NCBI GenBank assembly: GCA_963706575.1
Contig: CAVPNL010000001.1
Span: forward strand, 416,001-480,000
Source of the DNA: an uncultured delta proteobacterium
GTDB taxonomy: Bacteria > Desulfobacterota > Desulfobacteria > Desulfobacterales > JAHEIW01
Length of the DNA: 64,000 nt
Reading direction: 5' to 3'
Of this stretch, positions 8,078 through 26,216 are shown one piece after another (within the stretch, counting starts at the first letter, position 1; the number at the start of each line of letters is the position of its first letter). Made by a program: the position numbers and the translations under genes. The notes below the pieces were generated by a model. The model was not told the origin of the DNA and did not search any database. It saw nothing but the letters and a program-made list of their open reading frames with translations.

Positions 8078-8758
8078 ATGACGATGAAAAATGAGAAAGA
8101 AAACAAGACTCTTATAGAGGACGCATACCGTAAAATCAAGCAGATGATCTTTCAGCAAAAGGTCATCCCTGGACAGCGACTGGTTTACAGTGATTTGTGC
8201 AAGCTTTTTGACATGTCCAGAACCCCGATTATTAATGCACTTACTCGACTCGAACAGGAAGGCTTTCTTGTTTCCGAGGCCTTCCGCGGTTTTCAGGTAA
8301 AACCCATCGACCTTCAGGAACTCTGGGACCTTTTCGAAGTGCGCGAAGCACTTGAGTCGTATGCCGTCGAAAAAGCCATCGAAAGAGCCGAGCCTTTAGA
8401 TTTTGAAATACTTGAGGAAAAACTTCGCAATCATCAGCAATACATGCCGGACAGCTACACCCCCAAAAAATTCATGGTGGATGCTGAATTTCATGTTCAG
8501 ATCGCGGCGATGACCAAAAATAAAGTTCTGGAGAAAATGCTGAAGACAAATTTGGAGCACGTCAATCTTCGCTTCCGTTTGGACAGTTGCGATTCTTCAA
8601 GAATGCCGCTGGCGGTTGAGGAGCATCATGAGCTGGTGGAAAGGATGAAGAAGAAGGATGTGTTAAAGAGCGTTGAAATTATCCGAATGCATGTGCGCAG
8701 TGCGCGGGATACGTGTCTAAATTGTCTGTCCATGGAAGAGGAGACAATTGGTCTTTAA
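8078..8758 (+). CDS. GntR/FadR-family transcriptional regulator (wHTH + FCD)
   Basis: PGQRL...MSRTPIINALTRLEQEG helix-turn-helix; DAEFH and EEHHEL FCD motifs. Confidence 0.92.
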   Translation: MTMKNEKENKTLIEDAYRKIKQMIFQQKVIPGQRLVYSDLCKLFDMSRTPIINALTRLEQEGFLVSEAFRGFQVKPIDLQELWDLFEVREALESYAVEKAIERAEPLDFEILEEKLRNHQQYMPDSYTPKKFMVDAEFHVQIAAMTKNKVLEKMLKTNLEHVNLRFRLDSCDSSRMPLAVEEHHELVERMKKKDVLKSVEIIRMHVRSARDTCLNCLSMEEETIGL

Positions 8759-8801
8759 TGGATGGGATCGTACTGGCCATTTATTACGCAGGTAAATGAC
8801 G

Positions 8802-10480
8802 ATGGATCAAGGACAGATAAAAAAGGAAATGAAGGCGTGGGAACAAACCGCGCTTAAACGTGTATTGGACAAAAGCTGCTGAACGTGAGGCCGTCTTTAC
8901 CACCGAAAGCGGAATTCCGGTAAAGCGCCTTTACACACCATTGGATTTGCCGGATGCGGACTATAATGGCGATCTGGGTTACCCCGGAGAATATCCCTAT
9001 ACCCGCGGGGTTTATCCCACGATGTATCGCGGACGCCTCTGGACCATGCGAAACTATGCCGGATTTGGCACGGCGGAAGATACCAATAAACGCTTTCGCT
9101 ATCTTCTGGAACAGGGAATGCCGGGATTGTCCGTTGCTTTCGATCTGCCCACCCAGGTTGGATATGATTCCGACCACCCGATGTCAGAAGGCGCAGTGGG
9201 TCGCGTTGGCGTGGCGGTGGACACTCTGGCGGATATGGAGATCATTTTCAATGATATTCCGTTAGACCGGGTTTCGACTTCCATGACCATCAATTCGCCG
9301 GCCACCGTTTTGCTGGCCATGTACATCGCCGTCGGGGAGAAGCAGGGTGTCCCCAAAGAAAAGTTGATGGGCACCACCCAGAACGATATTTTAAAAGAAT
9401 TTATTGCCAGAGGAACCTATATCTTCCCGCCGGAGCCGAGCCTGAAGCTGACCATGGATGTCATTGAGTATTGTTACAAACATGTTCCCAAGTGGAATAC
9501 CCTCAGTATCACCGGATATCATTTCAGAGAGGCCGGTGCAAATGCCATCCAGGAACTGGCCTTTACCCTGGCAGATGCGATCCTCTATATCGAGAATGCG
9601 CTGGAACGCGGTCTGGATGTGGATGATTTTGCGCCCCGATTGTCTTACAGCCTGTCATGCCACCGGGATTTATTCGAGGAAGTGGCCAAATACCGGGCTG
9701 CCAGACGAATGTTCGCAAAAATTGTCAAAGAACGTTTTAATGCTCAAAACCCCAAGAGCTGCCTGTTCAGGACATACAGCGGATCGTGCGGATCAACCTT
9801 GACGCCCCAGCAACCGCAGAATAATATTGTTCGTATCGCCATGCATGCCCTGATGGGGGTTTTGGGCGGCCATCAAGCGATCCATACGGCCTGCTGGGAT
9901 GAGGGTTATGCCATTCCGACCGAAGACTCCGCTCGCCTGGCATTAAGGACCCAACAGATCCTGGCCCACGAGAGCGGTCTTTGTAACACCATTGATCCGC
10001 TGGCCGGTTCCTATTACGTGGAAGCCTTAACCGATGAAATCGAAAAACGGACCTCGGAATATTTAAACAAAATCGATGAAATGGGAGGGATGCTTAAAGC
10101 CATTGAAAACGGTTTTGTCTTCAGAGAGATTCAGGAATCCAGTGTTGAATTTCAGCGCAAGGTGGACAGCGGAGAGAAAGTCATCGTGGGACTGAACAAG
10201 TTCGTCATGCCGGAAGAAGAAGATGTTGAGCAACAGGATATATTTGAATACGATCAACGGATTGAGAAAATTCAGCAAGAAAAACTGGCACAGGTAAAAG
10301 CCAAAAGGGATGCGAAACAGGTGACTGCAGGCTTTGCAGAAGTTAGATCGCGCCATCGATCAAAACGGAAATCTGATGCCGTATATCGTCGATGCTGTCC
10401 AGTGTTACGCCAGTCTTGGCGAAATATGCGGCGTCATGCGGCAGAAATGGGGGGAGTACAGCCCGCCCATCTATCTATAA
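8802..10480 (+). CDS. B12-dependent acyl-CoA mutase, large (substrate-binding) subunit; two +1 frameshifts (about 8871-8874 and 10321-10333), sequencing error or pseudogene
   Basis: PGEYPYTRG, WTMRNYAGF, QNDILKE, GYHFREAG, DPLAGSYYVE; true N-terminus MDQGQIKKEMKAWE from 8802 and true C-terminus NLMPYIVDAV...SLGEICGVMRQKWGEY ending at TAA 10480 lie in other frames. Confidence 0.9.
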
Positions 10481-10519
10481 CCCATCTCAAAACACAATCG
10501 GAAAACCGGGAAACATACC

Positions 10520-10924
10520 ATGCAAAAACATAAGACGCGTGTTCTGATTGCGAAAGTTGGGCTCGACAGTCATGACCGCGGCGCTAAAATAGTTGCCCGA
10601 TCCCTGCGAGATGCCGGCTTGGAGGTGATCTACACCGGAATCCGCCAAAGCGTGGACCAGGTTATCAGCGCTGTCGTACAGGAAGACGTGGATTTGCTGG
10701 GTCTTAGCTTTTTGGCCGGTGATCATTTGGTCCTGGCGCCAAAGGTAATCCAGGGGCTAAAAGAAAAAGGCCGAGCGGATATCCCGTTACTGGTGGGCGG
10801 CATTATCTTAAAGCGTCACGTTGAAGAACTGGTAAAGATGGGTGTAAAAAAAGTATTTTTACCCGGAACCCCACTGAAGGAAATCGTCAACTATATTCAG
10901 GAAAATGTGTCCCCGCCTTCCTGA
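10520..10924 (+). CDS. Cobalamin-binding small subunit of acyl-CoA mutase
   Basis: DSHDRG (DxHxxG), GLSFL, LVGGII. Confidence 0.93.
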   Translation: MQKHKTRVLIAKVGLDSHDRGAKIVARSLRDAGLEVIYTGIRQSVDQVISAVVQEDVDLLGLSFLAGDHLVLAPKVIQGLKEKGRADIPLLVGGIILKRHVEELVKMGVKKVFLPGTPLKEIVNYIQENVSPPS

Positions 10925-11011
10925 ACGAATCATGAATTCATTGGCATACAGGATTTTCTGAACTTGAAATATGAAAGATAACGGCAAGTGTGCGGAAAGG
11001 GAACGAGTTCG

Positions 11012-13309
11012 ATGACATCATTGAATTATATTGGGAAAAGGCTTCGCAAAAAGGACGGCCGTGAAAAGGTTACCGGACGTGCCATTTACGGACAGGACCT
11101 TGTCTTGCCCAGAATGCTTTATGGTAAAATTCTATACAGCCTTTACCCCCATGCAAAAATCCGCTCAATTGATACCCGCAAAGCCAGGCGGGTACCCGGT
11201 GTCAGAGTTATCCTGACCGGAGACGACATCCCCGATATTCGAATCGGGTTTATCAAGGATAATATGCCCATAAATAAAGGGATCGTGCGCTGGGCCGGTG
11301 ACGAGATAGCGGCAGTAGCAGCAGAATCTGAAGAAGCAGCCGAGGAAGCCTTAGGGTTAATTGAAGTCGACTATGAAGAGCTTCCCGCTGTTTTTACCCC
11401 CGAAGAGGCGCTGGCCGAGGGGGCCCCGATTCTCCACGAAGGGCGCAAATCAAACCGCATTGATGAGATTTGCCGCACCTACCGCAAAGGGAACATTGAA
11501 GAAGGCTTTGCCAAATCCGATATCGTGTTGGAGGAAACCTATCATCTTCAGCATATGCAGCATTGCACCATGGGCACCTATTTTTGTGCGGCGTCTTTTG
11601 ATGCTTCCGGCAGACTGACTGTCTGGTCGCCAACTCAGGTGCCGTTCATTCTCCAGCGGGATATTGCCGATGCCTTGGGCATCAGCGGTCGCGATATTCG
11701 TATTTTGCAACCGACCATCGGAGGCGCTTTTGGTAAAGCACTCGACATGTACGCTTTTGAGGTCATTACGGTGCTGCTGGCCCAAAAAGCAGGCCGGCCT
11801 GTTAAAATCGTGTTTACACGGGAAGAGGAATTTAGCATCGCCTGCAAAAGACAGGCGGCTCAGATTACATTGAAGCACGGCGTTACCAAAGACGGGAAAC
11901 TGATGGCACGCAAAGTTGATATTTTAATGAATGCCGGCGCTTATGTTTCCTGGGGGCCGCTTTCCTCCTGGACCATGGTTCAAACCTTTGGTTCATTTTA
12001 TGAAGTGCCGCATATCGACTTCCTGTGCACACCCGTTTATACCAATATGCCGATCTGCGGCTCAATGCGCGGATACGGTAATCCCCAGGCTCACTTTGCG
12101 CTTGAGTCCCAAATGGACATGCTGGCCGAAGAACTGGGAATGGATGCCGTGGAATTTCGTAAAATCAATGCCAACGAGCCTTACAAAACCACCGAACAGG
12201 GAATCGGGATTACCAGTTGCGGATACATTGAATGTTTGGATGCGGCTTCAGAAGGAATCGGATGGAAGGAAAAACGGGGAAAGCAAACATCACCGGCGCC
12301 CAATAAAGTGCGGGGCATTGGTCTGGCCGGGATGTGGCATGTCGGTGGCGGATCTCGCATCTATCGATCCGATGGCTGCGGGGCCATTGTTAAAATTGAT
12401 GATTTTGGCAATGTCTTTCTCCTGACAGGGGCTTCCGAGATTGGGCAGGGATCCGATACCTCTCTTTGCCAGATCGTGGCGGATGTCCTGGGCGTTCCCT
12501 ATGACAGCATAACTCTGGTAAACAATGATACCGACATCACACCCTGGGATGTTGGCTGTCATGCCAGCCGTACGACCTTTATCGGCGGTAAAGCCGCCTT
12601 ATTTGCCGCCCGCGATGCCCGCAATCAACTGCTGGAAGCTGCCGGGGAAGTTTTTGAAATATCTCCCGAGGATCTTGATATTTATGACGGCATCATTTTC
12701 CCAAAAGATGCACCGAGCAAGGGCATGGCTTTTGAAAAGGTGGTTCGACGCAAACACTTCCAGAGCGGCGGTGATCTCATTATTGGGAAAGGATTTTATG
12801 ATCCGCCGACAACGTTGCTGAGTCCCAAGGATTCGCACGGCAATGTATCGGCGGCCTATACCTTTGCCGGTCAGGCAGTGGAAATTGAAGTGGATACCGA
12901 AACCGGACAGGTCGCGGTCATCAATGCCTCGGTGGCCCACGATATTGGCAAAACCATTAATCCCGTCGGACTTGAGGGTCAGATTGAAGGTGGCGCTGTC
13001 ATGGGATTGGGTTACGCTCTGTTTGAAGAAAGCGAGATCGAGGAGGGCCGGGTAATCAATCCGACGTTTGCCGATTACCATCTGCCGACAAGCCTTGACG
13101 CACCGCCGCTTCAAATTAAGATGGTGGAAACCGATGATCCGGAAGGACCTTTTGGCGCCAAAGGAATTGGCGAATGTGCTTCCATCGCACTGGCACCCGC
13201 TATCGCCAATGCCATTTATGATGCGGTGGGTGTGCGCGTCTATTCATTACCCATGACGCCGCAGAAGGTTTATCAAGCGATCATGAAGAAGAAAATGAAT
13301 AAGACCTGA
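11012..13309 (+). CDS. Xanthine dehydrogenase family molybdopterin-binding subunit
   Basis: GGAFG, MRGYG, EIGQG, GQIEGG and GPFGAKGIGE (catalytic Glu retained); start set at ATG 11012. Confidence 0.92.
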   Translation: MTSLNYIGKRLRKKDGREKVTGRAIYGQDLVLPRMLYGKILYSLYPHAKIRSIDTRKARRVPGVRVILTGDDIPDIRIGFIKDNMPINKGIVRWAGDEIAAVAAESEEAAEEALGLIEVDYEELPAVFTPEEALAEGAPILHEGRKSNRIDEICRTYRKGNIEEGFAKSDIVLEETYHLQHMQHCTMGTYFCAASFDASGRLTVWSPTQVPFILQRDIADALGISGRDIRILQPTIGGAFGKALDMYAFEVITVLLAQKAGRPVKIVFTREEEFSIACKRQAAQITLKHGVTKDGKLMARKVDILMNAGAYVSWGPLSSWTMVQTFGSFYEVPHIDFLCTPVYTNMPICGSMRGYGNPQAHFALESQMDMLAEELGMDAVEFRKINANEPYKTTEQGIGITSCGYIECLDAASEGIGWKEKRGKQTSPAPNKVRGIGLAGMWHVGGGSRIYRSDGCGAIVKIDDFGNVFLLTGASEIGQGSDTSLCQIVADVLGVPYDSITLVNNDTDITPWDVGCHASRTTFIGGKAALFAARDARNQLLEAAGEVFEISPEDLDIYDGIIFPKDAPSKGMAFEKVVRRKHFQSGGDLIIGKGFYDPPTTLLSPKDSHGNVSAAYTFAGQAVEIEVDTETGQVAVINASVAHDIGKTINPVGLEGQIEGGAVMGLGYALFEESEIEEGRVINPTFADYHLPTSLDAPPLQIKMVETDDPEGPFGAKGIGECASIALAPAIANAIYDAVGVRVYSLPMTPQKVYQAIMKKKMNKT

Positions 13310-13371
13310 TGGGATGAGGGCTGATTGGTCTGTTGATATAATGCCATTTGAACACAAAGAGGATGATCTAA

Positions 13372-13851
13372 ATGATTTTTGAGGACCATTTTTTAATCGA
13401 GGCTTCGCGGCCCGCTGTATGGGCATATATATGGGATCCGGAGAAGATGAGCCGCTGCGTTCCCGGGGTGGAAGAGGTTGTTGCAGAATCCGATGACAGC
13501 TATTCGGTGCGGGTCAAAACCCGGGTGGGATTCCTGTCGGCCACTTTTAATCTGGGTGTCAAGATTATGGAAGCTGAAGAGCCGGTTCGTCTAATGTCTG
13601 TTTTCGAAGGCAAAGACAGCAAGATTGCCAGCCGGCTAAAGCAGGTCAATACCATGGAGTTGGTTGACGTATCCGCCACCCGGACAGAGATGCGCTATAA
13701 GAGCGAAGTGACGTTGATGGGCAAAATGGCAACCCTGGGTCGCACTGTGATTAAGGGCAAGGCCAAACAAATGATGAAAGAGTTCAGTCAGAAATTGAAG
13801 ACGGAAATCGAGAAAGCCGAAGCGGAAAAGGCAGCGGCCAAGGAGGAATAA
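13372..13851 (+). CDS. CoxG/SRPBCC-family protein
   Basis: VWAYIWDPEKMSRCVPG...GKMATLGR pattern inside a molybdoenzyme operon. Confidence 0.85.
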   Translation: MIFEDHFLIEASRPAVWAYIWDPEKMSRCVPGVEEVVAESDDSYSVRVKTRVGFLSATFNLGVKIMEAEEPVRLMSVFEGKDSKIASRLKQVNTMELVDVSATRTEMRYKSEVTLMGKMATLGRTVIKGKAKQMMKEFSQKLKTEIEKAEAEKAAAKEE

Positions 13852-14724: not shown

Positions 14725-14739
14725 CAAAGGGGAGCAGAT

Positions 14740-15216
14740 ATGGATCAGCGATATGTGGAGTTATCTATCAATGGTGACCAATACCGGATATCGGTACAGC
14801 CCAATGAATTTTTAGCCGATGTATTGCGCAACAAACTGGATTTAACCGGAACAAAAACAGCTTGCGATATGGGCGTGTGCGGTTCCTGCACGGTGTTGTT
14901 GGACGGGTTGCCGGTCAGTTCGTGTTTGACGCTGGTGGTGGATGCTGAAGGAAAAGAAATTACGACAATAGAGGGACTGGAAAGCGCCGACGGTGAACTG
15001 CATCCGGTCCAGGAGTCATTTTTAGACAAAGGGGCGGTGCAGTGCGGATTTTGCACTGCCGGCATGGTGATGACCACCAAGGGATTCTTAGACAAAAATC
15101 CCAATCCCACAGAACAGGAGATCCGCCAGGCGCTATCGGGAAATATCTGCCGCTGCACCGGTTATGCCAAAATTGTGGAGGCGGTTGAGGATGCCGCCAA
15201 AAAAATGCAGCGTTGA
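14740..15216 (+). CDS. 2x[2Fe-2S] subunit (CoxS-like)
   Basis: CDMGVCGSC...C, QCGFC, CRC. Confidence 0.95.
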   Translation: MDQRYVELSINGDQYRISVQPNEFLADVLRNKLDLTGTKTACDMGVCGSCTVLLDGLPVSSCLTLVVDAEGKEITTIEGLESADGELHPVQESFLDKGAVQCGFCTAGMVMTTKGFLDKNPNPTEQEIRQALSGNICRCTGYAKIVEAVEDAAKKMQR

Positions 15217-15243
15217 TGAAAAGATCAGGAGCGCGATCTTGTG

Positions 15244-16431
15244 CTAAATGATTTTGCGCTCCTTAAACTGCTTCAATTCTTCATCTGAATATCCCAGAAT
15301 CCCACCAATGATTTCTTTGTTGTGCTCACCGAATCGTGGCGGAAATGAAAGCTGGCGGCCCAATCCTTCAAGGTAGGGTGTCAGATTGGGGGCCGGGGGC
15401 ATCGTGATTTTTGTACCGGTTAGCGGGTCTTCAGCGGATAAAAGGCGTTGTTGCACCAGTGGATCTGCCAGCACCTCGGGAATTGAATTTATTTTGCTTA
15501 CTGGGACTGTAATGGCATTAAACAGCTCGATCAGTTCCGCTGATGAATGATTTTTTGTAATCTCATTAATGGCGTTGTTCATCTTTGGGACGTTTTCGAT
15601 TCGACCCGCGTTGGTTTGATACTCGGATTTATCAAGTGATTGAAAAATCTCCTGCGACACCATTGCTTTCCACTGGCGGTCATTACCTACAGCCAGATAG
15701 ATATAGCCGTCGTTTGTTTTATAAACCGATAGGGGAGCAAAAAATTCATGCGTATTGCCCCGGCGGGTGATCGTTCGCCCCAGACTGGTAAAGGTAATGG
15801 GAATGGTAATCCAGGATAGGGAAGATTCGTACATGGACATATTCATACAGGATCCCTCACCGGTAACCTCGCGCTTATAAAGCGCTTTCATTACCAGTCC
15901 GTAACAGTGTTCACTTGTGCCCATGTCGGGAAGCGGAATGCCGGTTACATAGGGTTCACCTTCCTTCTCACCGGTCAGGTCCATCAGACCCGATCTGGCC
16001 TGCAAGATCGGATCATAGGCCGGCTCATTGCTTTGCGGTCCGAAGCCCGTAATGCCCAGCCAAATGATATCTGGCTTTAGCGCCTTTATGGTTTCATAAT
16101 CGATCCCCAGTTTTTCGTAGTTGCGCGGAAGCTGGTTGGTGGCAAAAATGTCGACTTTTAATTCCTGAATTAGATTACGGAAAATTTTTTGGCCCTCGGG
16201 GTCCGCAAGATTGAGCGTCATGGCTTTTTTGCCGGAATTGATACAGAGGTAATAGGTATTCATCCGCTCTTCATTTAACAGGTTCCATCCAACCAGTCTG
16301 TTCGGGTCTCCATACACGGGGTGTTCCAGCCGGATCACGTTAATTCCGTCATGAGCCAATCGATATGTCAAATACGGCAGGACCGTTGCCTGTTCCAGGG
16401 ACAGAACAGTAAGGTTTTTAAAAAATTCCAT
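15244..16431 (-). CDS. Class III CoA-transferase (CaiB/BaiF family)
   Basis: GDPNR, NSGKK, ITGFG, YDPILQARSG, PLPDMG (catalytic Asp), PRFGEHN. Confidence 0.9.
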   Translation of the reverse strand: MEFFKNLTVLSLEQATVLPYLTYRLAHDGINVIRLEHPVYGDPNRLVGWNLLNEERMNTYYLCINSGKKAMTLNLADPEGQKIFRNLIQELKVDIFATNQLPRNYEKLGIDYETIKALKPDIIWLGITGFGPQSNEPAYDPILQARSGLMDLTGEKEGEPYVTGIPLPDMGTSEHCYGLVMKALYKREVTGEGSCMNMSMYESSLSWITIPITFTSLGRTITRRGNTHEFFAPLSVYKTNDGYIYLAVGNDRQWKAMVSQEIFQSLDKSEYQTNAGRIENVPKMNNAINEITKNHSSAELIELFNAITVPVSKINSIPEVLADPLVQQRLLSAEDPLTGTKITMPPAPNLTPYLEGLGRQLSFPPRFGEHNKEIIGGILGYSDEELKQFKERKII

Positions 16432-16451: not shown

Positions 16452-16491
16452 TTGACATCTTTAAGGGATATATATAATTCAGTATTTTATT
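16452..16491 (+). promoter_or_regulatory. Promoter with reverse-oriented operator copy between the CoA-transferase and epimerase genes
   Basis: TTGACA 16452, TATAAT 16473 (15-nt spacer); AATTCAGTATTTTATT 16476-16491, reverse complement AATAAAATACTGAATT. Confidence 0.45.
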
Positions 16492-16606: not shown

Positions 16607-17008
16607 ATGATTAAGAAAATAAGTCACATTGGTCTGGCCGTTGACAATCTAGCGGAAGCCAGAGCCTTTTTCGATGAAACGTTCGATTTTTCCGTGTCCG
16701 CTCAAGAGCAATTCGGAGAGCTGCTATTTTCTTTTATTTCTCTTGGCGAAACCGATTTGGAACTCCTCCAGTCCACCACTCCTGAAGGACAGATCGCCAA
16801 ATTTATCAACAAAAGAGGGCAGGGTATCCATCATATCTCATTGGAAGTCGATGATATCCAGGCTGAATTGGACCGTCTCAAAACCAAAGGACTGCAACTT
16901 ATTAATGAGAAACCTTACCGCAACGCCCATCAGGAGTTGGTTGCCTTTATTCACCCGAAAAGCACTTATGGGATTTTATTCGAGCTCATCCAGTCTAAAG
17001 AGAAATAG
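16607..17008 (+). CDS. mce: Methylmalonyl-CoA epimerase-like VOC protein
   Basis: HIGLAV, LELLQ, GIHHISLEVDDI, FIHPKSTYGILFEL; start ATG 16607 behind GAGGAG. Confidence 0.82.
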   Translation: MIKKISHIGLAVDNLAEARAFFDETFDFSVSAQEQFGELLFSFISLGETDLELLQSTTPEGQIAKFINKRGQGIHHISLEVDDIQAELDRLKTKGLQLINEKPYRNAHQELVAFIHPKSTYGILFELIQSKEK

Positions 17009-17473: not shown

Positions 17474-18178
17474 TCATTTTGACAGTTTTTCCTGCAAAGT
17501 CGATATCAACTCATCCGTATCAAGCACTTTACCGAAGAAAGCCGCCCAGTTTCTCATAGTGTAGATCTGATCTTCCTCGGTAAATGTGGCGCTGGCGTCA
17601 TCGACCATGATGACCTTATACCCCAGATCCCAGGCGCTGCGGGCGGTGCTTCCCACGCAGACATCGGTAGCCGTTCCGACGACCACCACCGTGTCGATGC
17701 CGGCCATTCGCATGCGGTGATTGAGGGAAGTACCCATAAATGCACTGCGGGTTGCTTTGGGTATGACCAGTTCGCCCCGCTGAGGCTCGAGTTCTTCAAG
17801 GACCTTGAACTCAAAGTCCTCGGTGGTAAAGGCCGGGACTTCTTTGAGGCGTGCCTGTCTGAGGGGATGCAGGTCGCTTCCATCCAGCAGAGATGCGCCA
17901 AATGCGCCATAAAAGACCCGCATCTTGTTTTTCCTGAAAAAATCCAGCAGCTTGGCGCAGTTGGGAATAACAATTTTTAATCGATCCGAATAATATTGAG
18001 CGGCTTCCGGATCCGAGTCGATATAATTTTTTAGGACGCCGTAATCCGGATGGGCCACATAGTACTGCATATCAATCACCAACAGGGCCATGTTTGCGGG
18101 CTCCACCGGGAATTCGCCCACTGCCTGAGGGATTCTGTCCAGTCCCTTTTGCCAAGCTTTATTACCACTTGTTCCCAT
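17474..18178 (-). CDS. Isochorismatase-family cysteine hydrolase (amidase)
   Basis: Asp-Lys-Cys triad: VIDMQ, PKATRSAF, TDVCV. Confidence 0.9.
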   Translation of the reverse strand: MGTSGNKAWQKGLDRIPQAVGEFPVEPANMALLVIDMQYYVAHPDYGVLKNYIDSDPEAAQYYSDRLKIVIPNCAKLLDFFRKNKMRVFYGAFGASLLDGSDLHPLRQARLKEVPAFTTEDFEFKVLEELEPQRGELVIPKATRSAFMGTSLNHRMRMAGIDTVVVVGTATDVCVGSTARSAWDLGYKVIMVDDASATFTEEDQIYTMRNWAAFFGKVLDTDELISTLQEKLSK

Positions 18179-18227: not shown

Positions 18228-19355
18228 TTAGGGCTTACACCGCATCTCGAGGTAGGGCGGCGTTAATTCTTCACATCCGGTGTCGGTTACCAGTAATGTG
18301 CTGCAGCAGGTCACCAGGGCCGGTTCAACTTCGACAATTTGCAGGATAAAGGGGGTCCAGGGCTCAATCACCTGCTGGCCGCTCATGCCCATGTCCACCG
18401 GGCCGAAGGAAAGGCCCAGGTTGGCCCCGACTCGACGCCAGTAATCCTGCCCCTTTGCAGCGCGGTAAACGTTGTTGGCGGCCTTATACGTGTCTCCCGA
18501 AATCGCGCCCGGTTTGAGCGCCTCTTTGGCGGCCAGGTACATGTCGCGCACCAGTTTATGCGCATCGATGATTTCAGGATTTGGGTTTTCTCCAAGAAAA
18601 ACGGTTGCCTGAGCGCCTGCCAGGTATTGACATTCGGTGCCCCAGACTTCGACCGTGGCGATATCATTCACATTCAAACGGCGATTGACGGCGGTATCGT
18701 GCATGTAACCGCCTTTTGGGCCTGACCATATCCACATCTTGGGTACTTCAACATCGGACTGGCCGGCCCGATACATGGCATGTTGAATCTCAGCGATGAT
18801 TTCGTAGGGATAAAGACCGGCCCGTATCAATTCCAGCCCTTTTTGAAATCCGATATTGGTCATTTCAGCCGCCTTGCGGTAGTAGGCGACTTCCTGTTCA
18901 GACAGGGCGATGCGGATATTCTCGACCAGCCAGCTGGCATTTTTTAAATCTGCTTGGGGCAGGGCGTTTTTCATCTGATTGAACTGAAAAACCGTCATAA
19001 ATGCCTCTTCAACGCCGATGGTGCCCGTGGTAGCACCGCATTCTTCAACGAGTTCCGCCAGCATCGCATAGTGGTCTTCATGGTCCTTATAAAATCGGGG
19101 ATTTGGGGCCAGCTGGGTTTCAGCGGCCGAACATTCGATCACCCGGGTCATAAAACGCATTTCACCTTTCTGGGTGATGATCAGGGGCAAAAGGGGCAGG
19201 GTCCAGTTCATTGCTGCGGCCCGATATCCGGCCACCCAGTAAATATTTTGAGCCCGGGTGAGTATAATGGCATCCAGACCTTCCTGCAACATGCGCTTTT
19301 TAACCTTTTCAAGTCTTTGGCCGTATTCCTCATTCGAGAAAGGCAAAATACCCAT
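18228..19355 (-). CDS. Creatinase/M24-fold hydrolase lacking canonical metal ligands
   Basis: Creatinase-N start (FSNEEYGQRLEK...NIYWVAGY), pita-bread C domain (MHD, LLVTDTGCEELT). Confidence 0.8.
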   Translation of the reverse strand: MGILPFSNEEYGQRLEKVKKRMLQEGLDAIILTRAQNIYWVAGYRAAAMNWTLPLLPLIITQKGEMRFMTRVIECSAAETQLAPNPRFYKDHEDHYAMLAELVEECGATTGTIGVEEAFMTVFQFNQMKNALPQADLKNASWLVENIRIALSEQEVAYYRKAAEMTNIGFQKGLELIRAGLYPYEIIAEIQHAMYRAGQSDVEVPKMWIWSGPKGGYMHDTAVNRRLNVNDIATVEVWGTECQYLAGAQATVFLGENPNPEIIDAHKLVRDMYLAAKEALKPGAISGDTYKAANNVYRAAKGQDYWRRVGANLGLSFGPVDMGMSGQQVIEPWTPFILQIVEVEPALVTCCSTLLVTDTGCEELTPPYLEMRCKP

Positions 19356-19429: not shown

Positions 19430-19445
19430 AATTAATTATTGAATT
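19430..19445. promoter_or_regulatory. Candidate GntR operator (AATTAATTATTGAATT) upstream of the M24 operon
   Basis: Consensus copy; minus-strand TTGAC at about 19473-19477. Confidence 0.5.
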
Positions 19446-19629: not shown

Positions 19630-19665
19630 TTGACGGAGTTTTCATATTGAATTAAATATGGAATT
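19630..19665 (+). promoter_or_regulatory. Promoter plus operator (AATTAAATATGGAATT, 19650-19665) upstream of the CoA ligase/ABC operon
   Basis: TTGACG followed by the same layout as 8018-8053. Confidence 0.55.
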
Positions 19666-19814: not shown

Positions 19815-21365
19815 ATGCATCTAAGGGAAGTTTTGCTAAGAGAAGCACGGCGCAACGCCAATGTGGATGCGTTTATCTATGGGAACCAGCGCATGAGTTT
19901 CTATCAACTCAAAGAAAGAGGGTGTCGTCTGGCAAATGCACTTTCTGCATTGGGAGTGAAGCCAGGAGATCGGGTCGGGATTCTTCTTTATAACTGCTTT
20001 GAATATCCTGAGGTGCTCTGGGCCAATTTTATGCTGGGATCGGTTGCCGTAACGCTTAACTTTCGTCTGGTATCGGACGAGATCTTATATGCGCAAGAAG
20101 TGGCAGATGTCAATGTTTTGATACTGGGGGAAGAGTTTATCGAGCAAATCGAGCCGATTAAAGATCGTCTGGGGATTGATCATTACATCTGTCTTGGCAA
20201 AGAAGCCCAGCCGGACATGTCGTTTTATTCGGATTTAATGGAAAACGCAAGGGCGGATATTCCTCCTTTTACCGGAAATGATCGAGACGCCGCTGTGGTT
20301 TTGTTTACTTCGGGAACCGCTGCCTTTCCAAAGGCGGTGGTGCTCACCCACCAAAACCTCATCACGGCTGGCCTGGTCTGGGCGGCGGATATGGATATTC
20401 GGTATGGTGACAATTGCCTGGTGGTCACACCGTTCTATCACATCGGGGCGGTAGGGTATCATCTGGCTCACGCCATTTCTGGATCCAGTACCACCTGTTT
20501 TCCACAGCCTTCCTGGGATCCGGAGCTTTTTCTAAAAATCGTTGAAAAGGAAAGATGCACCTATCTGTATATTACGCCGGGGATGTATCGACAGGTTTTT
20601 TCCGTACCGAAATTTAAAGAATATGATCTCAGCTCATGGCGTACCTGTATCACCGGTTCGGAACCGGTACCCAGAGCCACCATCGAAGAGATGGCCGAAT
20701 ACCTTCCCCAGGGCCGCATCTACAATGCGTACGGGCTGACAGAAGCGACCGGACCCGCTGTTTCGGTGGCCAAGCATGAAATGGCCATTGAAAAAGCGCC
20801 ATCTGTGGGGCGGCCGTTCGTGAATACGGACATTCGGGTGATGGGTGAAGACGGAGAAGAATGCCGGACGGGCGAAGTGGGCGAAATAGCGGTAAAAGGT
20901 GATCAGGTCATGCGTGAATATTTGAATGATCCGGATACCACCAACGCCACGCTGAAAGCGGGTTGGCTCTATACCGGAGATCTGGGACAGATGGACGGCG
21001 ATGGATATCTATATGTCGTGGACCGTAAGAAGGACATCATTATCAGCGGTGGCGAGAACATCTCTTCGGTGGAGGTTGAATCCACTCTTTACAAACACCC
21101 CAAAATTATGGAAGCCGCTGTCATCGGGATTCCGGATGCCAAATTTGGCGAAGGCGTCTGTGCCGTCGTTGTCCCCCGGGAAGGCCAGGAGATCGCCGAA
21201 CAAGAAGTTCTGATGTACTGCAAAGAACATCTTGCCAGTTACAAAAAACCGCGGAAGGTGATTTTCACTGACGCGCTCCCACGGAATCCCTCTGGTAAAG
21301 TATTGAAACGGGATTTAAGGAAGCGTTACGCCGGCAGCGAAAAGAAGGTCTTTGCGCGCAAGTAG
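19815..21365 (+). CDS. AMP-forming acyl/aryl-CoA ligase
   Basis: FTSGTAAFPK, YGLTE, TGDLG, DRKKDIIISGGENI, PRNPSGK. Confidence 0.93.
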   Translation: MHLREVLLREARRNANVDAFIYGNQRMSFYQLKERGCRLANALSALGVKPGDRVGILLYNCFEYPEVLWANFMLGSVAVTLNFRLVSDEILYAQEVADVNVLILGEEFIEQIEPIKDRLGIDHYICLGKEAQPDMSFYSDLMENARADIPPFTGNDRDAAVVLFTSGTAAFPKAVVLTHQNLITAGLVWAADMDIRYGDNCLVVTPFYHIGAVGYHLAHAISGSSTTCFPQPSWDPELFLKIVEKERCTYLYITPGMYRQVFSVPKFKEYDLSSWRTCITGSEPVPRATIEEMAEYLPQGRIYNAYGLTEATGPAVSVAKHEMAIEKAPSVGRPFVNTDIRVMGEDGEECRTGEVGEIAVKGDQVMREYLNDPDTTNATLKAGWLYTGDLGQMDGDGYLYVVDRKKDIIISGGENISSVEVESTLYKHPKIMEAAVIGIPDAKFGEGVCAVVVPREGQEIAEQEVLMYCKEHLASYKKPRKVIFTDALPRNPSGKVLKRDLRKRYAGSEKKVFARK

Positions 21366-21484
21366 CTGAGATAAAGAATTATCAAAATAGGCCAAGCGAA
21401 AAATAGTTCCGTTATAAATGGTCTCAAACATTTTGACTGTTTTAAGCGCCATTGTAAACCGATATTTAGTGAAAGAAAAATCTG

Positions 21485-22408
21485 TTGAAATCGCACTTTC
21501 TCATATTACCCATATTTGTGGCAGCGATTTTTCTCTTTCCGCTGGTATTTCCTGAATCCTATTGGATAACGGTTTTCATATATGTGGGCATCTATGGCCT
21601 GATTGTTGTTGGCTACGACCTTCTTTTGGGTTATTGCGGTCAGATTTCCCTGGGACATAACGCCCTGTTTGCGATCGGGGCATACGCCACCGCCATTACA
21701 ACCACCTGGTTTGGCTGGTCTCCAATATTCGGCATCATTGGTGGCATATTCATTACCTGCCTGATCGCCTATGTTGTTGGAATTCCCACTTTGAGGCTTC
21801 GTGGTTACTATTTGGCCATTGCCACGATGGGATTCGCCTTTATCGTTGAATCGCTGATCAGGACCCAGTACTTTGGCGGGTCTTCGGGCATTTCAGGAAT
21901 CCCTCATCTTTCCGTCTTAGGCTATACCTTCGATTCTGACCGCAGTTATTACTATCTTGTCTGGAGCATTGTTTTCCTGGCGGCTGTTGTTTGCTTGCGA
22001 ATTGGTGAAACGGCACTTGGCAGAAGCATGAAGGCCGTGCATACCGACGAAGAGGCTGCCGGATGCATGGGAATCAATGTTGCCAAAACCAAAATTCAGG
22101 TATTTGTATTTAGCGCCGCGCTGGCAGCTATCGCCGGCAGTTTATATGCCCATTATGGGACGGTTATTTCTCCCAATAGTTTCAATATTATGCTGTCGGT
22201 GAAACTGCTGCTGATGCTTTTCCTGGGAGGCGCCGGCAGCATATACGGGGGGCTTATCGGTGCCTTAATTTTGTTTGCACTGCCTGAATTTCTGGAACAT
22301 ATGGAGAGACTTGAACTGGCAATTGAAGGCCTTGTGTTCATGCTCATTCTTATTTTTCTGCCTAAAGGTTTAGTTGGGGGATTAAACCGATTATTGAATT
22401 TAAGATAG
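21485..22408 (+). CDS. Liv-type ABC transporter permease (LivM-like)
   Basis: GQISLGH, LRLRGYYLAIAT, LGGAGS; TTG start. Confidence 0.9.
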   Translation: MKSHFLILPIFVAAIFLFPLVFPESYWITVFIYVGIYGLIVVGYDLLLGYCGQISLGHNALFAIGAYATAITTTWFGWSPIFGIIGGIFITCLIAYVVGIPTLRLRGYYLAIATMGFAFIVESLIRTQYFGGSSGISGIPHLSVLGYTFDSDRSYYYLVWSIVFLAAVVCLRIGETALGRSMKAVHTDEEAAGCMGINVAKTKIQVFVFSAALAAIAGSLYAHYGTVISPNSFNIMLSVKLLLMLFLGGAGSIYGGLIGALILFALPEFLEHMERLELAIEGLVFMLILIFLPKGLVGGLNRLLNLR

Positions 22409-22470
22409 ATAATAATCCGATATAATAAAAAAAATATAGCTCGGACTAAAGACGGTCACCGTAACAGGAT

Positions 22471-23265
22471 ATGGCAAACACGCACCGGCAAATTTTAAAA
22501 GGTCGATCAATCTCGAAAAATTTTGGAGGCCTACAAGCCCTGCTGAACGTCGATTTTGAGGTCGAAAACGGAATGATCTTTGCCATTATCGGGCCCAACG
22601 GTGCGGGTAAAACAACTCTGTTCAATCTTATATCCGGCTTTGACAGAGATTATTCGGGCGAATTCATTTTTAAAGATGTGTCCCTGGGTCAATTTCCGCC
22701 ACACGATATCACCTTGCGAGGAATTGCCAGGACGTTTCAAAATGTCAGGCTTTTTAAAAATCTTTCAGTACTCGAAAATGTTGCAGTGGGATGTCATGGA
22801 TGGGCGGCTCCAATTTATTCTCGCGCCATATTCGGTTTTAAGTCTAACCGGCAGGAGGAACATACCATTAAAGCGTATGCCCTGGAGATGCTGGACTTTG
22901 TAGGATTGGCGGATAAAAGAAACACGGAAGTCGAATCCCTTTCTTTAGGTGAGCAAAAGCTATTGGAAATCGCACGTGCACTGGCGGCCAAGCCCAAACT
23001 GTTGCTGTTAGATGAACCCGGAGCCGGGCTGAACGATCGGGAGATGGACAACTTAGAGGAGATTATTTTTAAAAATAAAGAAAACGGAATTACCCAGATT
23101 ATTGTTGAACACAATATGAAATTCATCATGAGCATTTCAGATGAAATTATGGTGCTTAATTTCGGAAACAAAATCGCTTATGGTCCCCCTAAACTAATTG
23201 TCAGCGATGAAAGCGTAATTGAAGTATATCTGGGCAAGGAAGAGAATCTTGTTAGAACTGAATAA
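22471..23265 (+). CDS. Liv-type ABC ATP-binding protein (LivG-like)
   Basis: GPNGAGKTT, ARTFQ, LLDEPGAG, VEH. Confidence 0.93.
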   Translation: MANTHRQILKGRSISKNFGGLQALLNVDFEVENGMIFAIIGPNGAGKTTLFNLISGFDRDYSGEFIFKDVSLGQFPPHDITLRGIARTFQNVRLFKNLSVLENVAVGCHGWAAPIYSRAIFGFKSNRQEEHTIKAYALEMLDFVGLADKRNTEVESLSLGEQKLLEIARALAAKPKLLLLDEPGAGLNDREMDNLEEIIFKNKENGITQIIVEHNMKFIMSISDEIMVLNFGNKIAYGPPKLIVSDESVIEVYLGKEENLVRTE

Positions 23266-23962
23266 TGTCACATCCGGTTACGGAAAATTTCAAGTCCTAA
23301 AAGAGGTCTCCATAAAAGTGAATGCAGGCGAAATCGTTTGCGTGGTTGGCGCCAATGGTGCCGGTAAAACGACCATGATGCGGGCGCTTTCAGGTATTAT
23401 TCCCATCTGGCAGGGTGGTAAATCCTTTAACCGTAAAGATGTGACCCGGCTCAGTGCAGCAAAATTAACCAAAGCGGGCATCATACAGATACCGGAAGGT
23501 CGATTGATCATCAAGGAACTCTCGGTTGAAGACAATCTTCGTTTAGGCGCATACTCCCACTATTTTAAGCTGGGCAAAGCCGAATACCGAAAAGATCTGG
23601 ATTCTGTCTATGAACTGTTTCCCATACTGTACAAAAGAACGCGTCAAAAAGCCGGTACACTGTCAGGCGGAGAACAACAGATGCTGGCCATTGGGCGGGG
23701 TCTGATGGGCAGACCCAAAATGCTCTTACTTGATGAACCCTCTCTGGGGCTCGCGCCGCTGGTGGTTTCCACCATTTTTAAGGTTATCAAAGAACTTAAT
23801 CAGAACGGATTGCCGATTCTTCTCGTTGAGCAAAACGTGAGGGCTGCCATGCAAATTTCAAATCGGGGGTATGTCCTGGAAACCGGGTCGGTTGTCTTAG
23901 AAGGAAGATGTGAAGATCTTCTAAACGATGAAAAGATCGTGCGGGCCTACATGGGTGCGTAA
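23249..23962 (+). CDS. Liv-type ABC ATP-binding protein (LivF-like)
   Basis: GANGAGKTT, PEGR, LSGGEQQM, LDEPSLGLAP; TTG start at 23249 behind AAGGA. Confidence 0.93.
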   Translation: MLELNNVTSGYGKFQVLKEVSIKVNAGEIVCVVGANGAGKTTMMRALSGIIPIWQGGKSFNRKDVTRLSAAKLTKAGIIQIPEGRLIIKELSVEDNLRLGAYSHYFKLGKAEYRKDLDSVYELFPILYKRTRQKAGTLSGGEQQMLAIGRGLMGRPKMLLLDEPSLGLAPLVVSTIFKVIKELNQNGLPILLVEQNVRAAMQISNRGYVLETGSVVLEGRCEDLLNDEKIVRAYMGA

Positions 23963-24074
23963 TCTCTAACAACAGGAGGTAATAGGGTCAAAAAGGTGCA
24001 AGGGATGGAATGTGAGTGACCAATCAAAATGTTACCACTTATTAAAAACGCATTAAAAATGAAAGGAGGATACC

Positions 24075-25256
24075 GTGAAAAGATCAACATTATTTGTGAT
24101 AGCCATCGCTATCGTCGCCATTTTTGTCTGTTCGCAAACCGTGTTTGCAGCTGATACAATTAAAATTGGTGCTGCTTATGGGATGACCGGCCGAATTGGC
24201 TGGATCGGAGAGGATTGTGTCAATGGCGCAAATTTAGTTGTCGATGAAATCAACGCCAAGGGTGGGATTAATGGAAAGAAAATTGAATTGGTTGTCTACG
24301 ATACCAAAAATAATGCCGACACAGCCAGAACGATTTTTGAAAAATTGGTCAAAAAGGATAAGGTCGTGGCAATCATAGGGCCCGTCGTCACCCAGGCAAC
24401 TCAAACCGTCATGCCCATTGCTGAGAAATACAAAATCCCTTACGCAGCGGTTTCAGGTGGCATCGAGATCAATGCCAAAATCCTGCCCGATTATAATAAT
24501 CAGGGAAAAAAAAGTTATACCTGGGCCATGAGTATCGGTACTCCCAGACAGAATGAAGTCAAAACCATCTGGCTTCAGAAAAAGGGCTTTAAAAAACTGG
24601 GCAATATCGAGCCGTTGTCCCAGATGGGAGAGCTTTCAACAGCCACTTATGACCAGTGGGCCCAACAGTACGGCATGGAGGTTGTCGCAAAAGAAAAATT
24701 TGACAACAAAGGCACCGATTTCACAACCCAGATGTCAAAGCTCAAAGCGGCCGGTGCGGATTCCATCGGAACGATGGCATCCGGCGGCCCGGCGGTGACT
24801 CTTGTTAAAAACAGGGATCAGGTTGGCATGCAAGGCGCACCGATGATGGTTTCCGATGCCAATCTCTCCAAAAAGTTTATCGGCCTGCTGGGAGAAAACA
24901 CTGCCAACGTATACACTGTTGGCGCTAAGATCAGCTTTCCCCAGCACCTGGATGCAAGTGATCCGCAGAAACAAATCATTGCGGATTTTCAGAAGAAATT
25001 TGAAGCCAAATTCGGAAAAGGTCCCAAGAGCTGGTTTTTTGCCTCGGTGGGCTATGATAGCGCTCTGATGTTTGTAAAAGCGATTGAACAGGCCGGAACC
25101 GATGGCGAGAAAATTCGGGATTGGGTAGAAGGTCAGTCGAAATTTCAGGGGGTTCAGGCAGTATATTCCTGGAGTGCCTTGGATCACCGCGGAATCGGAG
25201 TGGATCAATGTTCGGTTCTGGGAATTAAAGACGGCGATTGGGTGCCGGCTCAATAA
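24075..25256 (+). CDS. Liv-type ABC substrate-binding protein
   Basis: Signal peptide (VFA/ADT), IKIG, EINAKGGINGKKIELV, DFTTQMSK. Confidence 0.9.
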   Translation: MKRSTLFVIAIAIVAIFVCSQTVFAADTIKIGAAYGMTGRIGWIGEDCVNGANLVVDEINAKGGINGKKIELVVYDTKNNADTARTIFEKLVKKDKVVAIIGPVVTQATQTVMPIAEKYKIPYAAVSGGIEINAKILPDYNNQGKKSYTWAMSIGTPRQNEVKTIWLQKKGFKKLGNIEPLSQMGELSTATYDQWAQQYGMEVVAKEKFDNKGTDFTTQMSKLKAAGADSIGTMASGGPAVTLVKNRDQVGMQGAPMMVSDANLSKKFIGLLGENTANVYTVGAKISFPQHLDASDPQKQIIADFQKKFEAKFGKGPKSWFFASVGYDSALMFVKAIEQAGTDGEKIRDWVEGQSKFQGVQAVYSWSALDHRGIGVDQCSVLGIKDGDWVPAQ

Positions 25257-25266
25257 TATTTGTCTG

Positions 25267-25304
25267 ACGGGAAAGGCTCGCAAGAACCGATGAGCCTTTC
25301 CCGT
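25267..25304 (+). terminator. Hairpin after the substrate-binding gene (terminator or mRNA stabiliser)
   Basis: ACGGGAAAGGCTC...GAGCCTTTCCCGT 13-bp stem followed by TTT. Confidence 0.65.
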
Positions 25305-25343
25305 TTTAATGATTTTCAAGGGATGTAATCTAGGAGTAAGGCA

Positions 25344-26216
25344 TTGGACACGTTTTCACTCTATGTTCAATTTATCATTTCGGGCCTAACCATGGGAGCC
25401 ATCTATGCCATGGTGGGTATCGGCTTTTCCTTCATCTACCGGGTCACCACGGTATTGAATTTTGCTCAAGGTGAATTTCTTATGTTGGGTGGTATGGTGG
25501 CCATCACGATGACGTCTGTTATGGGGTCATCTCTTATATTCGCCCTGATCCTTGCTATTCTGGCGGTAACGCTAACCGGCATGCTGTTTCATCTGGGAGC
25601 CATTCGGGTGCTCGGAAAGGCCGAACCGGTTAGAATGATTCTGATCACTATCGCGGGGTCCATGTTTTTACAGGGTGTCGCTTATCTAATCTGGGGAACG
25701 GATGATTACAAACTGCCGGCACTCGTTAAAACCGGAACCATCAATATTTTCGGGGCGGCTGTCAACTCTCAGGTAATTCCGGTATTCATAGCTGCATTTT
25801 TAATCTCCTTTATTTTAAAAATCTTTTTCGACAAGACTATCTGGGGTAAAGCCAGCACCTCCTGTGCTGAAAGTCACGAAGCGTCCATGTTACTGGGCAT
25901 AAATGTTGATCGCATGGGAATGCTGAGTTTTGCCATGTCCGCCGGAATCGGGGCAATCGGTGGTATTTTGATTGCGCCGATTTCCTTGATGCAATACCAA
26001 AAAGGTGTCCCCCTGGCGATTAAAGGCATTGCCGGTGCGGTCATTGGGGGTCTCGGTAACATCTGGGGTGCATTGATAGGCGGCTTGATACTGGGGCTGG
26101 CTGAGGCGCTGAGCGCCGGTTTCATTGCATCTTACATGACCGACGTGGTTGTATTTGTGATTCTGATCCTGGTCCTGTTTATCAGACCGGAGGGCCTGTT
26201 AAAATCCAAATTATAA
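25344..26216 (+). CDS. Liv-type ABC transporter permease (LivH-like)
   Basis: GLTMGAIYAM, NFAQGE, IGGLGN, RPEGL. Confidence 0.92.
   Translation: MDTFSLYVQFIISGLTMGAIYAMVGIGFSFIYRVTTVLNFAQGEFLMLGGMVAITMTSVMGSSLIFALILAILAVTLTGMLFHLGAIRVLGKAEPVRMILITIAGSMFLQGVAYLIWGTDDYKLPALVKTGTINIFGAAVNSQVIPVFIAAFLISFILKIFFDKTIWGKASTSCAESHEASMLLGINVDRMGMLSFAMSAGIGAIGGILIAPISLMQYQKGVPLAIKGIAGAVIGGLGNIWGALIGGLILGLAEALSAGFIASYMTDVVVFVILILVLFIRPEGLLKSKL

Follow-up and report, generated by a model that had tools for sequence, protein, structure and literature searches.

A candidate regulon for oxygen-independent catabolism of an N-heteroaryl-acetic acid in an uncultured Desulfobacterales bacterium

Which compound is taken apart by a cluster of 18 genes in which a molybdenum (Mo) hydroxylase, two C-N hydrolases, and a B12-dependent acyl-CoA mutase stand side by side, and by what chemistry? 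The cluster occupies positions 8078 to 26216 of the window, by which we mean the whole 64,000-nt stretch analyzed here (G000:C1:416001-480000, where G000 is the source genome and C1 its contig). The closest titled relatives of the locus are metagenome-assembled genomes (MAGs) of Desulfobacterales, Desulfobacteraceae, and Deltaproteobacteria, and similar DNA in sequencing runs comes in most cases from sediment metagenomes. A sequence-only reading had proposed these 18 genes as a pathway for an N-heterocycle; Pfam/NCBIfam-type searches find all of them, with the family assignments it gave. We refer to the creatinase-fold hydrolase as CreA and to the isochorismatase-fold cysteine amidase as IsoC. 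In our judgment the cluster is probably part of a regulon for oxygen-independent catabolism of an N-heteroaryl-acetic acid (Het-CH2-COOH), proceeding through an R-succinyl-CoA, a B12-dependent rearrangement, and beta-oxidation.

The reactions and their order are deduced from gene identities, co-occurrence, a shared palindrome, clade positions, and residue patterns. The Liv-type importer would take up the N-heteroaryl-acetic acid and the ligase would form its CoA thioester, after which the Mo-hydroxylase, of the lineage of IaaI from the anaerobic indoleacetate (iaa) pathway, would oxidize the ring carbon between the nitrogen and the acetate-bearing carbon, and probably also the other carbon adjacent to the nitrogen, to yield a labile cyclic imide or acyl-amidine. 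Since the iaa pathway requires ATP to open its oxindole-type lactam, the ring opened here is more likely an imide or acyl-amidine, which would be more labile. CreA would open this ring without ATP to give a half-amide, and IsoC would hydrolyze the remaining amide to a 2-substituted succinyl-4-CoA with release of ammonia. The IaaL-lineage transferase would then place the CoA on the second carboxyl, the B12 mutase with its wide pocket would rearrange the product to an (R-CH2)-malonyl-CoA, and the epimerase would invert it. Enzymes of a second operon would complete the route, with decarboxylation by an MmdA-like carboxyltransferase and one round of beta-oxidation (acyl-CoA dehydrogenase, a MaoC pair, a short-chain dehydrogenase/reductase [SDR], and thiolase) to R-CO-CoA and acetyl-CoA.

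The main argument for this scheme comes from what is encoded beside CreA. A CreA-baited search supplied 11 loci from genomes and, from metagenomes, the best 80 of 84; with L114 added, these divide into 34 close loci (at least 50% CreA identity) and 58 distant loci, one of which was dropped because it has no CreA match at 1e-10. Loci end at 10 kb or at contig ends, so a gene that is missed is not necessarily absent. IsoC directly follows CreA in every close locus having at least 600 nt downstream (25 of 25). The 18 close loci of at least 8 kb code for NIPSNAP (17), the ligase (16), the large and small mutase subunits (15 each), GntR (13), the CoA-transferase (13), any Mo subunit (13, of which 6 are orthologous), the epimerase (10), the binding protein (7), and the carboxyltransferase (4); none has a hydantoinase. 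The genes are therefore found together in many loci, a point on which the sequence-only reading had made its pathway depend. Gene order is reshuffled between lineage groups, and the hosts among the close loci are sediment Desulfobacterota. The cluster is rare: apart from G000, a CreA orthologue is found in two of 60 relatives and, across the order, in one of 400 genomes. In the lineages with a swapped Mo enzyme (L036, L039, L040, and L041, downstream of the ligase) and in G502 (L114:9764-11839), the cluster also includes an ADP-forming acyl-CoA synthetase, which could recover ATP from the final thioester.

The distant CreA clade (34 to 45% identical to the window type) belongs to Alphaproteobacteria and Actinomycetota, including the cultured Pseudonocardia oroxyli and Blastococcus brunescens. 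An asparaginase-like gene lies within 400 nt downstream of CreA in 42 of the 46 loci with enough sequence (the exceptions are L053, L072, L077, and L080). Among the 17 distant loci of at least 8 kb we find asparaginase (16), PrpD (9), acyl-CoA dehydrogenase (9), ligase (7), transferase (6), Mo subunit (6), crotonase (5), a lyase resembling HMG-CoA lyase (4), a medium-chain dehydrogenase/reductase (MDR; 3), and hydantoinase (1), and in none of these 17 a mutase, epimerase, IsoC, or carboxyltransferase. The Blastococcus locus codes for a transferase, MaoC, PrpD, a dehydrogenase, and a CitE-type lyase. According to PMC12290011, methylsuccinate is degraded by this gene set, within a five-gene itaconate/methylsuccinate module (Ict, Ich, Ccl, Mcd, and Msi), and the characterized MmgE/PrpD substrates covered there all have a 1,4-dicarboxylate C4 backbone. 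An acyl-CoA dehydrogenase of a distant locus shares 67% identity with the enzyme of a dehydrogenase-PrpD locus in Cupriavidus. Two unrelated amidases and two unrelated succinyl-CoA back ends thus accompany CreA, which suggests a ring that gives a substituted succinamate and then a substituted succinate. Assuming related chemistry in both CreA clades, the two versions point to convergence on a 2-substituted succinyl-CoA via two C-N hydrolyses. Directly upstream of distant CreA, five loci (L017, L021, L058, L062, and L069) have a 340-aa gene without a Pfam match, presumably resembling 4,5-dihydroxyphthalate decarboxylase. In L019, a class II aldolase-fold gene lies close to genes for two Mo subunits.

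The predicted structure of CreA (predicted local distance difference test [pLDDT], 91.5) is nearest in fold to the ectoine hydrolase EutD (template modeling [TM] score, 0.87; 24% identity). All 35 aligned rows have H219, E236, Q249, R307, Q339, and T349, and 34 have R308; H219, E236, and R308 align with EutD H238, E255, and R326. The metal ligands of the M24 family are replaced, leaving a metal-free M24 fold with a catalytic His; the database label "Xaa-Pro dipeptidase" is therefore probably a misannotation, and we rejected Xaa-Pro peptidase as an identity on the same ground. CreA scores below the DoeA cut-offs (121 versus 575 and 98 versus 613 bits) and forms a discrete small subfamily, with about 20 representatives (at 50% identity) above 250 bits followed by a gap; Atlas names for it are generic M24 only, members of its sequence cluster carry no informative names, and plasmids hold no relative at an E value of 1e-40 or below. 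One subfamily member (P0210) is annotated from a Nitrososphaerota MAG, and same-genus genomes (G007, G012, G015, and G005) carry three to eight creatinase-fold paralogues at 22 to 29% identity, some in tandem (G012:C81). In IsoC, the Asp36-Lys141-Cys174 triad is invariant in seven of seven aligned orthologues. Its matches are weak (RutB, triuret/biuret-type hydrolases, and others), and a single-sequence structure model with a pLDDT of 48 was left unused.

The mutase is split into a large and a small subunit, as the sequence-only reading had it, although the large subunit needs correction: it extends from 8802 to 10480 over three frames (8802-8876, 8872 to about 10320, and 10328-10477) separated by two +1 indels. 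It is the sole broken gene of the cluster, all others matching their orthologues in one frame, and it is intact in 16 of 16 full-length orthologues from the fetched loci. The extra base at 8877 is missing from contigs of X2 and X15, two other genes among 61 tested in the genome are likewise split, and a paralogue 72 to 74% identical is encoded on the same contig. Membership of the methylmalonyl-CoA mutase (MCM) family is evident from the TIM-barrel large subunit, the DxHxxG B12 subunit, and Y243, H244, and E370. In 1REQ numbering (the literature number is the chain number plus one), Y89, Q197, R207, Y243, H244, and E370 are all retained, which marks a succinyl/malonyl-type substrate. The substitutions F287S, H328Y, Q330G, W334S, and N366A/S, judged from the alignment, widen the pocket. 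The window copy and 16 of 16 orthologues have S, Y, G, and A/S at 287, 328, 330, and 366 in place of the F, H, Q, and N of MCM proper; iaa-type mutases are also substituted at these four positions. We rejected ordinary MCM and ethylmalonyl-CoA mutase (ECM) as identities on these pocket residues.

In a quick tree, the mutase falls in a clade of 20 rows (support, 100) separate from MCM-like rows and from IaaG/H-like rows (also support, 100), and the TYSG pattern is present in 117 of its 120 best database matches. Residue 328 is Tyr in 12 rows of the clade, all from CreA clusters, and Phe in eight, of which seven lie beside amidohydrolase-2 and nitroreductase genes and the eighth is on a 4-kb contig. 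The Tyr328 rows were mostly found via CreA and the Phe328 rows form one branch, so this is a single event and not a statistical association; G502, which was found via its mutase, does carry CreA. The clade is uncommon, with one genome (G342) among 400 of the phylum, five at 70 to 75% identity among 400 of the order, and 3 of 24 of the family, three candidates per genome having been scored in two of these three surveys.

The "shared promoter motif" of the sequence-only reading resolves into a 16-bp palindrome with the consensus AATTCAATATTGAATT, which lies upstream of the cluster transcription units (Table 1). At up to three mismatches the window has seven matches, compared with a mean of 1.16 and a maximum of 3 in shuffled sequence, a comparison that is circular since the consensus was built from these sites and the one of a sister cluster. 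Five of the seven are in three control regions of the cluster, one is inside the mutase gene, and one is at 4991. Independently of the way the consensus was built, the palindrome half-site also occurs upstream of orthologous genes in other loci. GntR presumably binds the palindrome. A promoter/terminator scan yielded hits at or below chance. Genome-wide there are 15 sites at up to two mismatches, of which C1 has six. Three of the six belong to the window and one to the sister cluster; the remaining two, at 414407 and 414581, were detected later and head an operon outside the window, which gives the motif further independent support. This second operon (G000:C1:406382-414319) lies 1.7 to 9.6 kb before window position 1 and codes for a CoA-transferase, an MmdA-like carboxyltransferase, a thiolase, two MaoC-type subunits, two SDRs, and an acyl-CoA dehydrogenase. 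The system extends beyond the 18-gene cluster to this second operon, which has the same operator and matches the cluster functionally. Seven of its eight genes (all except the second transferase) are contiguous with the 18-gene cluster in genome G800, and the transferase, carboxyltransferase, thiolase, and SDRs adjoin cluster genes in L036 and L041. Genes for SerC, a major facilitator superfamily (MFS) transporter, a B3/4 protein, and TrpB2 lie between the two operons.

How far the cluster follows iaa can be read from its components. The iaa pathway of Aromatoleum aromaticum comprises IaaM, IaaB, IaaIJK, IaaCE, IaaL, IaaGH, and IaaF. For the references, six of 151 genomes in the family of G802 have mutases like that of the iaa-like cluster in G000; four were fetched, and two of these match what we take to be the iaa gene order and are used here in place of the Aromatoleum aromaticum proteins. 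The window proteins are 45% (mutase large subunit), 47% (Mo subunit), 36 to 37% (transferase), 31 to 34% (ligase), and 24 to 25% (binding protein) identical to those of the two iaa-order clusters, in which GntR, CoxG, the epimerase, NIPSNAP, IsoC, and CreA have no match. The roles of IaaM, IaaB, IaaL, IaaGH, and IaaF in A. aromaticum are described in PMC8360864. Among the 18 genes there is neither a Pfam match for an ATP-dependent hydantoinase-type lactamase (IaaCE) nor an acyl-CoA dehydrogenase (IaaF); the dehydrogenase of the second operon is 31 to 33% identical to those of the iaa-order clusters. At 45% identity and in separate clades, the mutase is not an IaaG/H orthologue. The window Mo subunit and IaaI-like proteins share one 12-row clade (support, 100), with the window protein as sister group; in five orthologous clusters its place is taken by another Mo enzyme, which nests within the IaaI-like branch. 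The clade that holds the transferase has the IaaL-like rows as its sister group, and the window protein is 70% identical to that of the genome's own iaa-like cluster (the Mo-subunit and transferase trees are FastTree). The Mo-hydroxylase and CoA-transferase are, by their placement as sister groups at 47% and 36 to 37% identity, from the iaa lineage, which suggests that, around the carbon under attack, the substrate resembles indoleacetyl-CoA in shape. The iaa-like logic claimed earlier gains support from these two proteins and from the dicarboxylate-binding residues of the mutase, and so does the claim of a variant distinct from iaa, without a hydantoinase or IaaF, with a separate mutase clade, and far from close orthology. 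On these features we rejected iaa itself. The cluster appears to work in an iaa-like manner without belonging to iaa; its mutase clade and hydrolase subfamily are uncharacterized, and the folds are known.

The same genome has a separate iaa-like cluster just past the window end, at C1:489-515 kb (L106:9019-20000 and L107), with two hydantoinase pairs, two PaaK-type ligases, a thiolase, a mutase, a Mo enzyme, an epimerase, and a Liv importer; no IaaF-like gene is seen among its open reading frames (ORFs), and L106 and L107 have no palindrome at up to two mismatches. The sister cluster (G000:C1:250-271 kb; L104:16631-20000 and L105) has a Phe328 mutase (72%), a GntR (59%), the same palindrome, an epimerase, a carboxyltransferase, a 3-hydroxyacyl-CoA dehydrogenase, an SDR, FadE, a PaaK-type ligase, and a Liv importer, together with a Mo enzyme with an HcrB-like FAD subunit, an amidohydrolase-2, a nitroreductase, and a 175-aa orphan (ATC-hydrolase-like in the Atlas). 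It appears to be another pathway that has not been described. Copies of the mutase-amidohydrolase-nitroreductase module are also present in G011, G022, G342, G668, G754, and G800, and in a third arrangement one locus of the last (L129, on G800:C199) carries the nitroreductase, the 175-aa orphan, a mutase fragment, and the window-type carboxyltransferase/thiolase/MaoC/SDR operon.

As to the substrate itself, a tentative suggestion is a monocyclic acid of the pyrrole-3-acetate or pyridine-3-acetate type, with R ending as a carboxylated chain (a tricarballylyl- or homoaconityl-type CoA ester). Hydroxylating pyrrole-3-acetyl-CoA or pyridine-3-acetyl-CoA twice would give imides with no reductase required, and tricarboxylate products would suit the polar Ser287/Tyr328 mutase pocket. 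Of the substrate types proposed earlier, the pyridine type is kept, as the acetate, and imidazole or pyrimidine fits less well. A wider and similarly speculative reading is that CreA marks an unrecognized route for a natural N-heterocyclic acid (for example, tetrapyrrole-derived pyrrole-acetate or pyridine-3-acetate) with two independently assembled back ends, B12 mutase/decarboxylase in sediment sulfate reducers and dehydrogenase/hydratase/lyase in Alphaproteobacteria and Actinomycetota. The mutase would then catalyze an undescribed tricarboxylic acyl-CoA rearrangement, such as tricarballylyl-CoA to 2-carboxyglutaryl-CoA, and the Tyr/Phe switch at 328 would split two substrate classes.

It is conceivable, although unlikely, that the cluster is instead a peripheral branch of iaa, in which the acid is of a substituted or fused indole type, CreA and IsoC remove an amide, amidine, or conjugate from its side chain, hydantoinases encoded elsewhere open the lactam, and R is an amino-(hetero)aryl group. 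The iaa lineage of the Mo enzyme and transferase, the two hydantoinase pairs of the iaa-like cluster on the same contig, and the sister-type mutase beside IaaA/IaaP-like genes in G342 agree with this, but the close loci lack hydantoinase (0 of 18), the iaa-like cluster lacks the palindrome, the mutase clade and pocket are unlike those of the IaaG/H-like rows, and the beta-oxidation genes of the regulon are of MaoC/FabG type rather than IaaP type. An isonicotinate-type route, of the kind in Mycobacterium INA1, is improbable. It would proceed by double hydroxylation, CoA activation, reduction to a glutarimide carboxyl-CoA, two hydrolyses to tricarballylyl-CoA, and rearrangement to 2-carboxyglutaryl-CoA; a literature search gave nothing for comparison. 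The CoA would already sit on the carboxyl that the mutase requires, and an MDR-type reductase is present in 3 of 17 distant loci and two Mo subunits in one, whereas no ring-reductase candidate is found among the 18 window genes, the second operon has oxidoreductases of beta-oxidation type only, and the IaaL-like transferase would be superfluous.

Two further routes start from other rings. Oxidation of a 5-substituted pyrimidine via a barbiturate to a substituted malonate, followed by activation, epimerization, and rearrangement to a succinyl-CoA, would account for the epimerase, for RutB being the best NCBIfam match of IsoC (far under its cut-off, at 76 versus 378 bits), and for an NMT1/THI5-like binding protein in one distant locus. 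We hold it to be quite improbable, as the operator shared with the decarboxylase and beta-oxidation operon argues for the succinyl-to-malonyl direction, the distant clade has an asparaginase and a succinate module, and thymine would need ordinary MCM only, yet F287, H328, Q330, and N366 are all changed. There is very little to recommend degradation of imidazole-4-acetate via imidazolone-acetyl-CoA and formimino- or formyl-aspartate: the aspartate product would make the mutase, epimerase, decarboxylase, and beta-oxidation unnecessary, and the mutase is present in 15 of 18 close loci. CreA does resemble a cyclic-amidine hydrolase, and an indolepyruvate:ferredoxin oxidoreductase (1693-4173) is encoded nearby with a weak palindrome at 4991, but that site has three mismatches and is near background (88 such sites in 5.67 Mb).

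Several points weigh against the N-heteroaryl-acetate reading that we favor. The 34 close loci are kin, collapsing to 27, 12, and 8 groups at 97, 90, and 85% CreA identity. The substrate of the distant CreA clade may be a different one; neither the ligase nor the Mo enzymes there are orthologues of the window proteins, and the PrpD is just 31% identical to the Cupriavidus PrpD. The order of CreA and IsoC and the type of bond each would cleave are assigned from about 20 to 25% identity or weak similarity to characterized enzymes. Imide formation would have to involve two hydroxylations by one Mo enzyme, no abundant natural source of pyrrole- or pyridine-3-acetate is established, and the window mutase copy may be inactive through its two frameshifts. 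Finally, the sister-type mutase in G342 adjoins IaaA- and IaaP-like genes, a neighborhood that favors an aromatic R for at least that mutase branch.

Table 1. Genes of the cluster and operator-like palindromes, in window coordinates
Feature	Position	Strand	Remark
Operator-like palindrome, upstream of gntR	7846..7861		1 mismatch
Operator-like palindrome, upstream of gntR	8026..8041		3 mismatches; just 3' of TTGACA hexamer
GntR/FCD regulator	8078..8758	+	orthologue at least 55% identical in 13/18 close loci of at least 8 kb
B12 acyl-CoA mutase large subunit, uncharacterized clade	8802..10480	+	two +1 indels, near 8877 and 10320
Mutase B12-binding small subunit (MutS)	10520..10924	+	DxHxxG
Xanthine-dehydrogenase-family Mo subunit	11012..13309	+	sister to IaaI-like clade
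CoxG-like accessory protein	13372..13851	+	
FAD subunit, 290 aa	13852..14724	+	without HcrB-type Fe-S insert
2x[2Fe-2S] subunit	14740..15216	+	
Class III CoA-transferase	15244..16431	-	clade sister to IaaL-like proteins
Operator-like palindrome, between divergent CoA-transferase and epimerase genes	16476..16491		3 mismatches
Methylmalonyl-CoA-epimerase-family protein	16607..17008	+	TIGR03081 above cut-off
NIPSNAP-family protein	17032..17352	-	role unassigned; in 17/18 close loci
IsoC, isochorismatase-fold cysteine amidase	17474..18178	-	D36, K141, C174; proposed half-amide hydrolase
CreA, metal-free creatinase/ectoine-hydrolase fold	18228..19355	-	H219, E236, R308; proposed ATP-independent ring hydrolase
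Operator-like palindrome, upstream of creA	19430..19445		2 mismatches
Operator-like palindrome, upstream of ligase	19650..19665		2 mismatches
AMP-forming acyl-CoA ligase	19815..21365	+	closest solved: FadD13, a feruloyl-CoA synthetase
Liv-type ABC importer, whole	21485..26216	+	
LivM	21485-22408	+	
LivG	22471-23265	+	
LivF	23219-23962	+	
Liv binding protein	24075-25256	+	
LivH	25344-26216	+	

For the binding protein and ligase there is no close liganded structure (best E values, 1e-23 and 2e-92, respectively). Contigs from two metatranscriptomes span 28 and 29 of 30 bins, mostly at 90 to 95% identity; these are relatives, represented by contigs only and possibly derived from DNA, and we do not count them as expression. 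Elsewhere in the window, positions 1693 to 4960 code for an AAA ATPase and the alpha and beta subunits of indolepyruvate:ferredoxin oxidoreductase, with a three-mismatch palindrome upstream (4991-5006), and 33135 to 34779 holds two overlapping ORFs, the second matching the C-terminal half of DUF885 only, which resembles another frameshifted gene. Contig C1 as a whole is rich in aromatic and heterocycle catabolism: window proteins match eight Mo-hydroxylase large subunits, four mutase-family genes, and many CoA ligases on it.

A literature search, with most subscription papers outside its scope, found no published description of this cluster. Substrates are known for few B12 acyl-CoA mutases, and the pocket of this clade is unlike those compared here. 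If the proposed chemistry is right, ring opening by an ectoine-hydrolase fold would be ATP independent and cheaper than the hydantoinase step of iaa, which is relevant to energy-limited sulfate reducers, and the cluster would represent a turnover route for nitrogen heterocycles in anoxic sediments. The pathway lends itself to testing, since four of its proteins (the binding protein, the ligase, CreA, and IsoC) are each soluble and encoded by a single gene.

Among known systems, nicotinate fermentation of the Eubacterium barkeri type uses split Mo subunits, 6-hydroxynicotinate reductase, enamidase, and methyleneglutarate mutase, whereas the window has a single 765-aa Mo subunit, an acyl-CoA-type mutase, and no amidohydrolase or reductase among the 18 genes; the comparison with it drawn in the sequence-only reading is therefore weak, and we rejected this identity. 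The 4-hydroxybenzoyl-CoA reductase HcrCAB gives the Mo subunit its best match in both PDB and NCBIfam, but the scores fall short (673 versus 995 bits for HcrA and 120 versus 405 for HcrB, the beta model matching only from position 154), the FAD subunit has no Fe-S insert, and Hcr-like rows are on a separate branch, so it too was rejected. CreA shares the metal-independent M24 fold of creatinase and ectoine hydrolase (EutD/DoeA), with three EutD residues kept, although no ectoine-utilization genes are among its annotated neighbors. The mutase is split into large and small subunits like 2-hydroxyisobutyryl-CoA mutase (HCM; 4R3U is the closest solved chain) and has Y89, Q197, R207, and H244 as in MCM, unlike 4R3U, which has Ile at position 89; it also differs from ECM, whose pocket pattern is H328G and N366P, and it keeps the Y89 that is changed in isobutyryl-CoA mutase (ICM). 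The enzyme classes of the itaconate/methylsuccinate module are those of the distant CreA loci, and in the window cluster the mutase, epimerase, and carboxyltransferase take their place. The system most similar overall is iaa, with which the cluster shares an importer, CoA ligase, Mo-hydroxylase, class III transferase, split B12 mutase with a widened dicarboxylate pocket, and GntR regulator, and from which it is set apart by the creatinase-fold hydrolase, cysteine amidase, epimerase, NIPSNAP, and CoxG and by a predicted decarboxylation through a carboxyltransferase.

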